DNA of 54,216 nt from Waddliaceae bacterium (GCA_963783885.1 CAWAPJ010000014.1:1-54216), one strand, 5' to 3'; counted from the first letter of the stretch, positions 44,345 through 49,933 are shown. The notes: generated by a model not told the origin, from the sequence alone. A program made the numbers and translations.

Positions 44345-44868
44345 TCCACTCCGGCGTCACTGTTTCCGGATTTGTCATTGGAACCGAAAAACTCTACCGC
44401 TTTATCGACGACAATCCCGCCGTTATCCAGCTCGATATCGGCTACGTCAACGCCCCCGCTACAATCGCCCGAAATCCAAAAGTCATCTCCATAAATTCTG
44501 CGGTGGAAGTCGACCTCACAGGTCAAATTTCTGCCGACTCGGTCGGCCACAGAATTATTTCCGGCGTCGGCGGCCAGATCGACTTCATTCGCGGGGCGGC
44601 CCTCTCCCCCGGAGGCAAGCCCATCATTGCCATGACCTCCCGTTCGGCCAAAGGACACCCCAAGATCGTCTCCGAGCTCAAACCCGGAGCCGGCGTCGTG
44701 ACCACCCGCGCCCACGCCCACTACATCATCACGGAATATGGCGTTGCCGACCTCTTCGGCAAAACCTTAAAAGAAAGGGCTGACGCCCTGATCAGCATCT
44801 CCCACCCCGAAGACAGAGAGCAGCTCGAAAAAGAGTGGAAAGAACAAGTCTCCAATGCTGTTTACTAA
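44345..44868 (+). pseudogene. Duplicated 3' end of the CoA-transferase gene (fragment 1)
   Basis: Near-identical to 41811-42334; lacks the 5' part. Confidence 0.92.
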
Positions 44869-44869
44869 A

Positions 44870-44915
44870 GAGCCACTTGCAAAAGTCGGTTTTGCCGGAG
44901 TTTTGCAAATGGCTC
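44870..44915. mobile_element. 46-bp MITE with TAAA target duplication
   Basis: Same ends as 37238-37301. TAAA at 44866-44869 and 44916-44919. The equivalent sites after 42334 and 49933 are empty. Confidence 0.85.
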
Positions 44916-44977
44916 TAAAATAAATTAGATCAATTGACAGACTGAGCTCCGTTTTTCTCATCGTTGAAGCTGTTATA

Positions 44978-47119
44978 TCATAAAATGAGGTTGATATTCC
45001 CTTTCAGCGCTTTGGCAAGAGCTTTTGCACCTTCTGCGCCGATGTCGTTAAATGACAAATTAAGCGTTGTGAGGGTTGTATTCTCTTTCAGGAATTCGTT
45101 AAGAGCTTTTACCCCTTCTGCGCCGATGCGGTTAACCCGCAAATTAAGCTCTGTGAGGGTTTTATTCCTTTTCAGCGCTTCGGCAAGAGCTTTTGCACCT
45201 TCTGCGCCGATGTTGTTATTTGTCAAATCAAGCTCTGTGAGGGTTTTATTCCCTTTCAGCGCTTCGGCAAGAGCTTTTGCACCTTCTGCGCCGATGCGGT
45301 TAACCCGCAAATTAAGCTCTGTGAGGGTTTTATTCCTTTTCAGCGCTTCGGCAAGAGCTTTTGCACCTTCTGCGCCGATGTTGTTATTTGTCAAATCAAG
45401 CTCTGTGAGGGTTTTATTCCCTTTCAGCGCTTCGGCAAGAGCTTTTGCACCTTCTGCGCCGATGTCGTTAAATGACAAATTAAGCGTTGTGAGGGTTGTA
45501 TTCCCTTTCAGCGCTTCGGCAAGAGCTTTTACCCCTTCAACGCCGATGTTGTTATATCCCAAATTAAGCGTTGTGAGGGTTTTATTCTCTTTCAGCGCTT
45601 CGGCAAGAGCTTTTGCACCTTCTGCGCCGATGTCATTATCTCCCAAATTAAGCTCTGTGAGGGTTGTATTCCCTTTCAGGAATTCGTTAAGAGCTTTTGC
45701 CCCTTCTGCGCCGATGCGGTTAAAAGACAAATCAAGATTTGTGAGGGTTGTATTCCCTTTCAGGAATTCGGCAAGAGCTTTTGCCCCTTCTGCGCCGATG
45801 CGGTTAACCCGCAAATTAAGCTTTGTGAGGGTTTTATTCTCTTTCAGGAATTCGGCAAGAGCTTTTGCACCTTCTGCGCCGATGTCGTTACCTCCCAAAT
45901 TAAGCTCTGTGAGGGTTGTATTCCCTTTCAGGAAATCGGCAAGAGCTTTTGCACCTTCTGCGCCGATGTTGTTATATGTCAAATTAAGCTCTGTGAGGGT
46001 TGTATTCCCTTTCAGCGCTTCGGCAAGAGCTTTTGCACCTTCATCGCCGATGTTGTTATATGTCAAATTAAGCTCTGTGAGGGTTGTATTCCCTTTCAGC
46101 GCTTCGGCAAGAGCTTTTGCACCTTCTGCGCCGATGTCATTATCTCCCAAATTAAGCTCTGTGAGGGTTGTATTCTCTTTCAGCCATTCGGCAAGAGCTT
46201 TTGCCCCTTCTGCGCCGATGTTGTTAAATCCCAAATCAAGCGCTGTGAGGGTTGTATTCCCTTTCAGTACTTTGGCAAGAGCTTTTACCCCTTCATCGCC
46301 GATGACGTTACGTGACAAATCAAGCACTGTGAGAGTTTTATTCCCTTTCAGCGCTTCGTTAAGAGCTTTTGCCCCTTCATCGCCGATGCGGTTAAAAGAC
46401 AAATCAAGATTTGTGAGGGTTGTATTCCCTTTCAGTACTTCGGACAGAGCTCTTGCCCCTTCATAGCCGATGCTGTTCCATCCCAAATCAAGCTCTGTGA
46501 GGGTTGTATTCCCTTTCAGTACTTTGGCAAGATCTTTTGCACCTTCATAGCCGATCTTGTTACTTCTCAAATTAAGCGCTGTGAGGGTTGTATTCCCTTT
46601 CAGCGCTTCGGCAAGAGCTTTTGCCCCTTCAGGACCAAACTTGTTGCGTGACACATCAAGTGTTTTGAGATTTTTTAACTCTTTTAGTTTTTTTAACTGA
46701 GCAGGGGTCACATGAGTTTTAGATAAGTTAAGCACTTCTAATTGAGTAAAATGATCAGTAATAAACTTGATTTCAGCATCCGATATTTGTTTTCCTGAAA
46801 GGTTGATTTCTTGAGTATCTTGAGGGATAACTTTTTTTAAAAATTCTACTGCTTGTTTTTGGACTTCAGGTTTAGAGTCTGGCGATCCTAATTTTTTAAA
46901 GGCTATATCCTTCATTTTTTCTAGCAGCGGAAATTCTTTGTCGTAAGCGAGTCGCTCAAATTGGCGGCTGACTCCCGCCAATTGAAGAAGAGATTTGGGA
47001 TCATCACTTAATTTTTCAAATATGAGCATTAAAATCTCATCCGGGAGATCAGACAATCGGATTTCTTCTTGTATTTCGTTTTTTTTCTCAGGAACCCCTC
47101 CTGGTTTAACTGGCTCCAT
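44978..47119 (-). CDS. F-box + 20 x 28-aa LRR protein (copy 2)
   Basis: 713 aa; F-box then LTxLxLxxNxIGxEGAKALAExLKGNTT repeats. Confidence 0.93.
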   Translation of the reverse strand: MEPVKPGGVPEKKNEIQEEIRLSDLPDEILMLIFEKLSDDPKSLLQLAGVSRQFERLAYDKEFPLLEKMKDIAFKKLGSPDSKPEVQKQAVEFLKKVIPQDTQEINLSGKQISDAEIKFITDHFTQLEVLNLSKTHVTPAQLKKLKELKNLKTLDVSRNKFGPEGAKALAEALKGNTTLTALNLRSNKIGYEGAKDLAKVLKGNTTLTELDLGWNSIGYEGARALSEVLKGNTTLTNLDLSFNRIGDEGAKALNEALKGNKTLTVLDLSRNVIGDEGVKALAKVLKGNTTLTALDLGFNNIGAEGAKALAEWLKENTTLTELNLGDNDIGAEGAKALAEALKGNTTLTELNLTYNNIGDEGAKALAEALKGNTTLTELNLTYNNIGAEGAKALADFLKGNTTLTELNLGGNDIGAEGAKALAEFLKENKTLTKLNLRVNRIGAEGAKALAEFLKGNTTLTNLDLSFNRIGAEGAKALNEFLKGNTTLTELNLGDNDIGAEGAKALAEALKENKTLTTLNLGYNNIGVEGVKALAEALKGNTTLTTLNLSFNDIGAEGAKALAEALKGNKTLTELDLTNNNIGAEGAKALAEALKRNKTLTELNLRVNRIGAEGAKALAEALKGNKTLTELDLTNNNIGAEGAKALAEALKRNKTLTELNLRVNRIGAEGVKALNEFLKENTTLTTLNLSFNDIGAEGAKALAKALKGNINLIL

Positions 47120-49415: not shown

Positions 49416-49448
49416 AAATACCTCCTACGACAATGATAGTTTTGATTA

Positions 49449-49464
49449 AGCAAAACCCGTGCCA
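49449..49464 (-). promoter_or_regulatory. Sigma-54 -24/-12 promoter of copy 3
   Basis: TGGCACGGGTTTTGCT at the same spacing. Confidence 0.8.
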
Positions 49465-49553
49465 CATAGGAGAGGAAAAAAGAGCGTCTTCGCTATCCTA
49501 ATCTCAATCACCCCGCTCATTATTAATGAGATACAAAATCTTGCTTCACAATC

Positions 49554-49933
49554 CCATAAATTCCGCGGTGGAAGTCGACCTCACGGGCCAAATATCTGCC
49601 GATTCTGTCGGCCACAGAATTATTTCCGGCGTCGGCGGCCAGATCGACTTCATTCGCGGGGCGGCCCTCTCCCCCGGAGGCAAGCCCATCATTGCCATGA
49701 CCTCCCGCTCGGCCAAAGGACACCCCAAGATCGTCTCCGAGCTCAAACCCGGAGCCGGCGTCGTAACCACCCGCGCCCACGCCCACTACATCATCACGGA
49801 ATACGGCGTTGCCGACCTCTTCGGCAAAACCTTAAAAGAAAGGGCTGACGCCCTGATCAGCATCTCCCATCCTGAAGACAGAGAGCAGCTCGAAAAAGAG
49901 TGGAAAGAACAAGTCTCCAAAGCTGTTTACTAA
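49554..49933 (+). pseudogene. Duplicated 3' end of the CoA-transferase gene (fragment 3)
   Basis: 5' part like fragment 2; 3' end and downstream spacer like the intact gene. Confidence 0.92.

Follow-up and report, generated by a model that had tools for sequence, protein, structure and literature searches.

Why should three headless copies of the end of a metabolic gene differ in their DNA from the working gene and still encode virtually the same protein? This question is raised by an island of approximately 9.2 kb (41045-50218) in a contig of 54,216 nucleotides (nt) from a Waddliaceae bacterium (GCA_963783885.1, CAWAPJ010000014.1:1-54216), the whole of which we refer to as the window. Flanked by a gene for a SpoU-type methyltransferase and one for a family-2 glycosyltransferase (GT2), the island contains an intact acetyl-CoA hydrolase/transferase gene (the CoA-transferase gene in the following), three genes for F-box/leucine-rich repeat (LRR) proteins, denoted rep1 to rep3, and three 5'-truncated copies of the 3' end of the CoA-transferase gene, denoted f1 to f3. 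According to BLASTN searches of the window and of the whole assembly, a metagenome bin of 2.16 Mb in 46 contigs that is 88.9% complete, these fragments are the only partial copies of the gene.

A first-pass annotation, made from the sequence of the window alone, held that the fragments carry the mark of purifying selection and not of decay, and that they are recently functional alleles, displaced or imported with cassettes from related strains in the manner of gene-end replacement at attachment sites. Our own answer, to which we assign a probability of about 0.58, is that the fragments sample the working alleles of a recombining population, which would have reached them by displacement or import together with gene conversion. 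Judging from the sequence, the fragments are by-products and not genes, and recently functional alleles are the best inference as to what they represent.

Results

The fragments differ from the working gene mostly at silent positions

A codon-by-codon comparison of f1 with the intact gene gives 17 differences, 15 of them synonymous and 2 non-synonymous (P258S and K426N), with no insertion or deletion (indel), in agreement with the count of about 15 and 2 made in the first pass. The 10 differences of f2 comprise 9 synonymous changes and 1 non-synonymous one (K426N), and f3 has 7 synonymous differences and no non-synonymous one, both fragments likewise being free of indels. In encoded protein, the fragments are 98-100% identical to the working enzyme, all the way through to its stop. 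The six changes that had been listed for f2 and f3 (ACA>ACG, GGT>GGC, ATT>ATA, GAC>GAT, TCG>TCT and CGT>CGC) are all found in both of these fragments; what is more, GCC>GCT at nt 1203 of the gene is common to f1, f2 and f3, and CAT>CAC, CCT>CCC and AAA>AAT are common to f2 and f1.

The ratio of non-synonymous to synonymous divergence (dN/dS), proposed earlier as a check and computed here by the Nei-Gojobori method, is far from 1. Namely, it equals 0.040 for the intact gene and f1 (dS 0.128, dN 0.005, binomial P under neutrality 5.6e-8), 0.033 for the intact gene and f2 (P 2.3e-5) and 0 for the intact gene and f3 (P 5.0e-5). Among the fragments themselves, f1 and f2 are separated by 9 synonymous and 0 non-synonymous changes (P 2.9e-6) and f1 and f3 by 11 and 1, respectively; the comparison of f2 with f3 (2 synonymous, 1 non-synonymous) is not significant and is uninformative. 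Altogether, dN/dS lies between 0 and 0.04 in five of the six pairwise comparisons, and third positions of codons account for 22 of the 23 variable sites (the chance probability of at least 21 of 23 being 1.1e-8).

Could the same pattern be produced by a fragment that was simply copied and then left to decay? Under a model in which a neutral fragment diverges from an intact gene that changes only silently, the expected non-synonymous share is 0.61 and the probability of finding at most 2 non-synonymous changes among 17 is 4.6e-5, so that the model is rejected. A decaying f1 would be expected to show approximately 50 non-synonymous changes if it diverged as much as the silent sites have, and approximately 82 if it diverged as much as its flanks have, and 2 are observed. 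The time that each fragment has spent as untested DNA is bounded at approximately 0.4-0.9% neutral divergence, versus a silent divergence of 8-30% between the alleles. With 0 indels, 0 stops and a strong bias to third positions, the fragments do not look like decaying pseudogenes left by tandem duplication, and the earlier claim of a purifying-selection signature without decay is borne out (dN/dS 0-0.04, 0 indels, all frames open).

The two amino acid replacements deserve a closer look. K426N sits in a C-terminal tail that cannot be aligned among eight relatives. P258S, on the other hand, replaces a proline that is invariant in all eight, and it results from an adjacent TC>CT pair at nt 771/772. 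As this pair lies only 5-6 nt from the f1 junction, the true homology may start at nt 773. Since the divergence of 8-30% is silent-only, including that between two headless copies, the differences must have arisen in working genes. Such silent-only divergence among copies is impossible within one clonal genome.

Selection in place does not explain the pattern

Would selection on the fragments themselves suffice as an explanation? For f1 the sequence gives a direct reply. Namely, an in-frame stop is found 11 codons before its junction, and from there no ATG, GTG or TTG occurs until GTG 44503 (rare start codons not counted). Upstream of this GTG lie 11 of the 17 differences of f1, and 10 of these 11 are silent. 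As these silent differences fall into a stretch without a start, the pattern is not one that selection could have produced by acting on a translated stand-alone domain; going by its reading frame, the purifying signature of f1 cannot stem from selection at its present position.

That said, some features are those that one would expect of expressed and selected stand-alone C-terminal domains, translated from GTG 44503, ATG 47230 and ATG 49526, a possibility already raised in the first pass. The frames are open to the natural stop (184, 143 and 143 amino acids), an in-frame ATG precedes the junction of f2 and of f3 by 28 nt, and f1 holds the entire C-terminal domain as delimited by Pfam (residues 268-419). 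However, this domain is cut in f2 and f3, which start at residue 304, and all three fragments lack the conserved HTEMWSDG block, which lies further upstream in the enzyme and to which we presume a catalytic role. The candidate starts are without a Shine-Dalgarno motif, whereas the adjacent F-box genes carry TAGGAGGT, as before the ATG of rep1. Furthermore, of the plus-strand promoter-like sites only one, at 44188-44217 ahead of f1, is close to the start of a fragment, with none ahead of f2 or f3, the promoter-like sites of the region numbering 5 versus 8.8 in shuffled sequences. Countered by the startless silent stretch of f1 and by the missing Shine-Dalgarno motifs, among other points, this explanation is, in our estimation, highly improbable. 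An antisense intrinsic terminator was also considered as a reason for retaining the fragments and was rejected: the hairpin and T-run at 44776-44796, 47545-47565 and 49841-49861 fold like shuffled sequences (z 0.06), and terminator-like sites are rarer than in shuffles (6 versus 10.4).

Freely diverging sequences in the same units and at the syntenic locus

The units that carry the fragments also provide internal controls. In the F-box genes, the first 140 codons of rep1 and rep3 are separated by a dS of 0.29 and a dN of 0.11 (ratio 0.37). Aligned over 143 nt, the upstream regions of rep1 and rep2 (up1 and up2) show 30 mismatches and 5 gap positions, and between IGa, the spacer behind the intact gene, and IGb, its counterpart behind f1, there are 20 mismatches in 93 aligned nt together with 38 gap positions. 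The non-coding neighbours of the fragments are approximately 21% different, with indels.

A further control is found in a genome of the same genus (G001). Its syntenic SpoU-GT2 locus (L171, G001:C4:1769607-1773314) has no CoA-transferase gene, and at positions 2363-2830 it contains a 186-nt copy of the 3' end of GT2, which is 91% identical to that genome's own gene, carries 2 frameshifting indels and adjoins a single LRR unit and further F-box/LRR gene remnants. This GT2 fragment gives the picture of decay at the syntenic locus, and the SpoU-GT2 locus is a rearrangement hot spot in both species.

The copies are mosaics

The differences among the four copies come in blocks. Private to f1 are a block at nt 771-921 and the sites nt 1122 and 1161. 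Over nt 942-1065, the intact gene and f1 are set against f2 and f3; at nt 1227, 1230 and 1278, it is the intact gene and f3 that are set against f1 and f2; and nt 1203 is the single site at which the intact gene is set apart from all fragments. The partition over nt 942-1065 is incompatible with that at nt 1227, 1230 and 1278, and the four-gamete rule is therefore violated, a clear sign of recombination. There are only 4 switches of pattern among 13 sites (permutation P 0.0012). In particular, the difference between f1 and the intact gene amounts to 7% over nt 767-924 and to 1.6% over nt 925-1290, f2 joins an f3-like 5' block to an f1-like 3' block, and the identity of f3 with the intact gene begins at nt 1204 and continues past the stop into the next 77 nt (IGa and the spacer after f3, IGd, agree at 77 of 77 positions).

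Identical tracts extend across the units as well, the 138 nt of up2 being the same as those of up3 and rep1 being the same as rep2 over the first 360 nt or so. The truncation points, on the other hand, differ: they fall at nt 767 (or 773) for f1 and at nt 911 for f2 and f3. The alignment suggests a deletion of approximately 144 nt in the lineage of f2 and f3, followed by tandem duplication, in which case the deletion would be the only sign of erosion in the fragments.

Variants of the locus in other samples

Parts of the stretch are contained in 14 public runs, metagenomes of soil and salt marsh that come from 11 studies, with no RNA run among those listed; contigs of four of these runs (X1-X4) were aligned with the window. 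The f1 junction is bridged by contigs in X2, X3 and X4, the junction of the f2/f3 type in X1 and X3, and the right end of the array in X1. In X4, f1 has the letters of the intact gene at nt 783, 789, 798 and 801 and f1 letters on either side, a pattern that marks a short conversion tract. A contig of the same run over nt 927-1290 carries three new variants (nt 975, 984 and 987), all of them silent, and f3 carries T at nt 1065 in X3 and X4. Compared with the window, X2 and X4 show 7 listed changes in the intact gene upstream of the part represented in the fragments, 5 of them silent and 2 conservative (T224A and S242A); in total, the intact-type contig of X2 has 9 differences from the window, 7 of which are among those listed. 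Allelic diversity of the working gene, of roughly 2%, thus exists.

Two contig joints were examined as possible evidence of rearrangement and set aside. The joint 42052>44689 (X2 and X4) is 102 nt out of register, has 24 nt on one side and lies beside G+C-rich loose ends; we read it as coming from CoA-transferase genes of other organisms. The joint 42905>46664 (X4), which connects an LRR of rep1 with the 5' sequence common to rep1 and rep2, is explained equally well by a change in LRR copy number, as rep1 and rep2 share their 5' parts. It fits a strain with approximately 10 fewer 84-nt repeats, or the loss of a unit. The number of LRRs is polymorphic among the samples.

Organization of the island and its neighbourhood

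The coordinates of the island's features are collected in Table 1. A full-length gene is followed by three same-strand, 5'-truncated copies of its own 3' end, which is also the arrangement of C-terminal displacement arrays. All three F-box/LRR genes are convergent with the CoA-transferase gene, and each fragment lies approximately 140 nt upstream of an F-box/LRR start codon.

Table 1. Features of the island and of its two flanking genes, with positions in the window; nt and residue numbers refer to the CoA-transferase gene and protein, and aa stands for amino acids.
Feature	Position	Strand	Basis
SpoU-type methyltransferase gene, left flank	40303..41061	+	Pfam PF00588
Intact acetyl-CoA hydrolase/transferase gene, 429 aa	41045..42334	+	PF02550 7e-30, PF13336 2e-60
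Spacer IGa, separates convergent stop codons	42335..42449		First 77 nt equal to spacer after f3
F-box/LRR gene rep1, 583 aa, F-box-like domain and 15 LRR_6 stretches	42450..44201	-	Pfam, TRF
up1, upstream region of rep1, ends at f1 junction	44202..44344		Alignment; junction bridged by X2, X3 and X4 contigs
Fragment f1, CoA-transferase nt 767-1290, residues 256-429	44345..44868	+	BLASTN, 524 nt, 17 mismatches, 0 gaps
48-nt palindromic repeat element in spacer after f1	44870..44918		Alignment insertion, hairpin fold
F-box/LRR gene rep2, 713 aa, 20 LRR_6 stretches	44978..47119	-	Pfam, TRF
up2, upstream region of rep2	47120..47257		138/138 nt identical to up3
Fragment f2, CoA-transferase nt 911-1290, residues 304-429	47258..47637	+	BLASTN, 10 mismatches, 0 gaps
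F-box/LRR gene rep3, 572 aa, 14 LRR_6 stretches	47697..49415	-	Pfam, TRF
up3, upstream region of rep3	49416..49553		Junction with f3 identical to up2/f2 junction; bridged by X1 and X3 contigs
Fragment f3, CoA-transferase nt 911-1290	49554..49933	+	BLASTN, 7 mismatches, 0 gaps
Spacer and short 3'-end remnant of a fourth F-box/LRR gene, right end of array	49934..50102		50102/50103 boundary bridged by X1 contig
GT2 gene, right flank	50219..51391	-	Pfam; 91% aa identity to G001

The SpoU protein has an amino acid identity of 86% and 72% to those of the same-genus genomes G001 and G002, respectively. BLASTN homology to these loci ends at 41004 (G001) and 41012 (G002), which places the left edge of the island inside the last 19 or so codons of SpoU and means that the island provides the C-terminus of this protein. 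Homology to G001 picks up again at 50214, 5 nt before the stop of GT2. The annotated GTG start of the CoA-transferase gene (41045) overlaps SpoU by 17 nt, the next possible start being an ATG at 41054.

The intact gene resembles those of 4-hydroxybutyrate CoA-transferases and has both the N- and the C-terminal domain (PF02550 and PF13336), its protein aligning over the full length with the eight relatives at 65-69% identity. Searches of 41 related genomes at the DNA and protein levels matched one genome only (G022, 66-67% identity), and the CoA-transferase gene had no match in any of five genomes of the same family. Scans of one genome per GTDB species reached at most 69% amino acid identity, with the best matches in bins of Parachlamydiales and Chlamydiales, and scans of JGI metagenome contigs at most 68%. 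Together with the F-box/LRR genes, these best matches point to a source that is probably chlamydia-like.

In the F-box/LRR proteins, Pfam places the F-box domain PF12937 at residues 22-63 (5.6e-9 to 1.1e-7) and PF13516 in 14-20 stretches. The LRRs are encoded by 84-nt units of 82-86% identity, of which rep1 holds 15.2 copies according to TRF. A protein Atlas search retrieved generic F-box/LRR clusters only. Elsewhere in the window (17206-18537) there is a further LRR protein, of 443 amino acids, with LRR_14/LRR_6 matches; it belongs to a different family, and no F-box was detected in it.

The palindrome after f1 has a perfect stem (RNA fold -26.4 kcal/mol, z -6.8). It is absent from the spacers after the other copies, lies outside the duplication unit and, from its structure, looks like a small repeat of the kind of repetitive extragenic palindromes (REP) or miniature inverted-repeat transposable elements (MITE). 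Similar copies are present on at least five other contigs of the assembly (C2, C10, C11, C22 and C37), and in contigs of other samples the palindrome occurs in several contexts (loose ends at 44879-44919).

As for the remainder of the window, two DDE transposase genes (150-1238 and 24308-25045; PF01609 and PF13612) are the only mobility genes found in it. The ranges 27421-33315 and 3868-6065 contain a chemotaxis cluster (CheB, a CheA-like hybrid kinase, two or three CheW, CheR and a SpoIIE-type response-regulator phosphatase) and hydrogenase maturation genes (HypD and a HypE-like AIR-synthase fold). Such chemotaxis and hydrogenase maturation genes are unusual for a chlamydia-like genome. Finally, a peptidase M20 gene at 33632-34907 is split into overlapping open reading frames (ORFs) of 335 and 105 amino acids, both matching PF01546, possibly by a frameshift or an assembly error.

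Discussion

How might such an array have come about? In the scheme that we favour, the island holds a CoA-transferase gene that works and, convergent with it, an F-box/LRR effector gene, and the effector unit would have been multiplied or stacked three times. As the left boundary of each unit lies inside the CoA-transferase gene, each unit brings along a headless 3' end. Standing allelic variation of the working gene, at about 2% or more in a recombining population from which the fragments would be sampled time and again, would have reached them by one or more of three routes. Namely, (a) the resident 3' end may be displaced by recombining DNA of a foreign strain, with or without homology-facilitated illegitimate recombination; (b) the expressed copy may be swapped for a diverged allele by ordinary homologous recombination; or (c) short gene-conversion tracts may pass among the four copies. 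That the alleles came from other strains, and by which of these routes, is what we infer. The first-pass proposal of alleles displaced or imported with cassettes from related strains holds in part: recently functional alleles are favoured by the dN/dS values and by the startless f1, but the import together with F-box/LRR cassettes does not stand in the same way, as no full-length donor was found and allelic replacement with gene conversion gives the same pattern.

Several observations weigh against the view that the fragments sample alleles of a recombining population. No full-length allele with the f1 block (nt 771-921) or with the f2/f3 block (nt 942-1065) was found among the 41 related genomes, the GTDB species genomes, the JGI metagenome contigs and the four runs. 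On the side of the upstream region, the end points of the two junction classes are no more than 4 nt apart, and for this reason one founding junction followed by the deletion of approximately 144 nt fits better than two displacement events. The decayed GT2 fragment of G001 is also rich in third-position differences (10 of 14), so that a bias of this kind is found at a decaying copy too. Furthermore, no contig of X1-X4 spans a whole unit, and it is from the bin contig that the order of the parts and the presence of all four alleles within a single cell are taken; in X1, no contig bridging the f1 junction is among the matches listed. Finally, in X2 the 314 nt from nt 964 to 1277 form one contig with 1 difference and a depth of 16.8, versus 2.5-6.7 for single-copy sequence (approximately 4-5x), which suggests that the copies are homogenised in the X2 population and that not every population shares the heterogeneity of the window.

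The last of these points lead to the likeliest of the alternatives, that of a strain-chimeric contig combined with concerted evolution. Here gene conversion would keep the fragments identical to the working gene of each strain, and the contig would mix strains, the silent differences being ordinary between-strain divergence with no need for import or displacement. The source is, after all, a bin in many contigs and is incomplete, several variants of the locus co-occur in the salt-marsh runs, the deep 3' contig of X2 looks as if its copies were identical, and the missing unit-spanning contig agrees with this as well. However, the only intact-type contig of X2 over nt 771-797 differs from the intact gene of the window at no more than two unlisted places, and the only f1-type contig of X2 carries all four f1 letters at nt 771, 772, 783 and 789, from which it follows that the intact gene and f1 differ within X2. 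Moreover, the f1 of X4 is itself mosaic, and in X1 the intact gene, the junction of f3 and the end of the array are all represented by contigs that have 0 differences from the window. It should also be noted that this alternative needs the same recombination machinery, and that the fragments would still mirror working alleles. Chimeric assembly, which the first-pass annotation had named as a threat to its reading, is made less likely by the junction-bridging contigs of other samples, although none of those in X1-X4 reaches across a unit; we regard it as unlikely, if worth keeping in mind. Could selection instead act by proxy within one lineage, reciprocal exchange with the expressed gene exposing the fragments to selection and purging their damage? 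The identity of the 3' end of f3 and of 77 nt of spacer with the intact gene, the conversion tract in the f1 of X4 and the blocky site patterns all speak for such exchange. However, frequent exchange homogenises and cannot at the same time allow a silent drift of 8-30%; an unswapped fragment, on the other hand, would keep its damage, and none of the three fragments is damaged at constrained sites, P258S beside the junction being a possible exception. For the purging of damage by such exchange, our estimate is that it is improbable.

Another candidate is an integrase with its attachment site in the CoA-transferase 3' end, in the style of phages, integrative and conjugative elements or integrons. 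If every inserted cassette supplied a new gene end, the outcome would likewise be a full gene, its cargo and then a same-orientation copy of the gene end, over and over. Yet none of the 53 ORFs of at least 90 amino acids that were scanned with Pfam in the window yielded an integrase or recombinase domain, the only mobility genes are the two DDE transposases, approximately 17 and 40 kb away, and each unit contains an F-box/LRR gene only. As the boundaries lie at nt 767/773 and at nt 911, there is no common core. On these same two grounds, the lack of an integrase and the differing truncation points, the earlier analogy with attachment sites has to be given up in favour of C-terminal displacement without an integrase as the closer parallel, and we hold this mechanism to be extremely improbable. 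Somewhat more can be said for a bolder version of the exchange, in which the 3' end of the CoA-transferase gene would serve as a portable homology handle for the integrase-free exchange of effector cassettes. Units made of a gene end and an F-box/LRR gene would pass between co-infecting chlamydial strains and enter the expressed gene by a RecA-dependent single crossover (Campbell-type) or by homology-facilitated illegitimate recombination, whereby the incoming handle would be spliced onto the working gene and the resident end demoted to a fragment. As selection on the enzyme would police the handles, these would stay perfect. If true, this would mean that effector repertoires are shuffled at a housekeeping gene in the way that tips of Rhs and type VI secretion system (T6SS) proteins are shuffled at core genes; for the time being, we consider it a speculative and rather unlikely possibility. 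With these alternatives weighed, the sampling of working alleles from a recombining population remains the reading that we prefer.

Which known systems does this array resemble? Displacement at rhs genes was reportedly described in 2009 by Jackson et al., whom Kirchberger et al. cite in their 2017 paper. In the source genome itself there are classical orphan toxin/immunity arrays of Rhs (C8:1-8000, C22:35500-46000 and C43:9000-21500), with truncated Rhs ends, different tips and small downstream genes (a ribonuclease with Barstar; Imm53) in units that are 87-99% identical. For the effector-immunity arrays of the Vibrio cholerae T6SS, the paper of Kirchberger et al. (2017, PMC5361080) proposes homology-facilitated illegitimate recombination, and in the C-terminal displacement proposed there, DNA of another strain would join on one side through homologous recombination and drive the resident end further downstream (PMC5361080). 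As far as this account goes, the likeness to the present island is considerable: a full gene is followed by same-orientation, 5'-truncated ends, each with a cargo gene and without an integrase, and the displaced pieces seem to resemble working alleles. The silent-only divergence and the allelic diversity of roughly 2% in other samples would fit an origin in working alleles of other strains. By the same account, the differences are considerable too. Namely, the ends described here are 98-100% identical in protein sequence to the enzyme and have no variable toxin tip, the gene concerned is a metabolic CoA-transferase gene, and the cargo is not an immunity gene but a complete convergent F-box/LRR gene with its own ribosome-binding site. 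In addition, two of the three units share one junction here, so that plain tandem duplication took part.

A second comparison is offered by the F-box/LRR (NEX1a-type) and BTB/LRR families of Parachlamydiaceae, which form tandem arrays (Domman et al. 2014, PMC4209131). In that report, birth-and-death evolution is put forward and 'no convincing evidence' is seen for recombination shaping the families (PMC4209131). Likened by domains and arrangement to the NEX1a-type arrays as they are portrayed there, the present array is also tandem, also stems from an amoeba-type chlamydia and also varies in LRR number (14-20 here). Unlike what is portrayed there, it has clear conversion tracts and mosaic units, and its co-duplicated ends of a neighbouring gene constitute an internal clock.

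Two further systems have parts of the pattern. Integrative elements such as phages, integrative and conjugative elements and genomic islands insert into the 3' ends of tRNA or protein genes and duplicate the gene end in doing so. Such attachment-site duplications resemble the island in that the gene is complete at one border of the inserted DNA and its 3' end recurs, displaced, at the other, but in the island there is no integrase found, no shared core boundary and no mobility gene in the units. Antigenic variation, on the other hand, draws on silent donor cassettes such as pilS, vls and the msp2 pseudogenes. By analogy, promoter-less partial copies stay undamaged in these systems by repeated recombination into the expressed copy; here, however, there is no variable surface, and the differences are silent, so that exchange leaves the protein unchanged.

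In this light, what is already known are tandem F-box/LRR arrays, as well as displaced gene ends at toxin loci and at attachment sites, at least as far as the cited accounts extend. What is unusual is that the ends of a metabolic-enzyme gene, with near-perfect protein sequence, flank complete convergent effector genes. If nothing more than tandem duplication and gene conversion took place, or if the contig mixes strains, the island is a neat but ordinary example. The gene-end copies nevertheless serve as a built-in clock and tracer of the recombinational turnover of units that carry putative host-targeting F-box/LRR genes, and they indicate that, measured against the age of the alleles, units are replaced quickly and that this turnover probably takes place between strains. 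If import or displacement is indeed what happened, then the displacement logic of Rhs and T6SS loci would work at an ordinary metabolic gene as well, and would there move eukaryote-like effectors.

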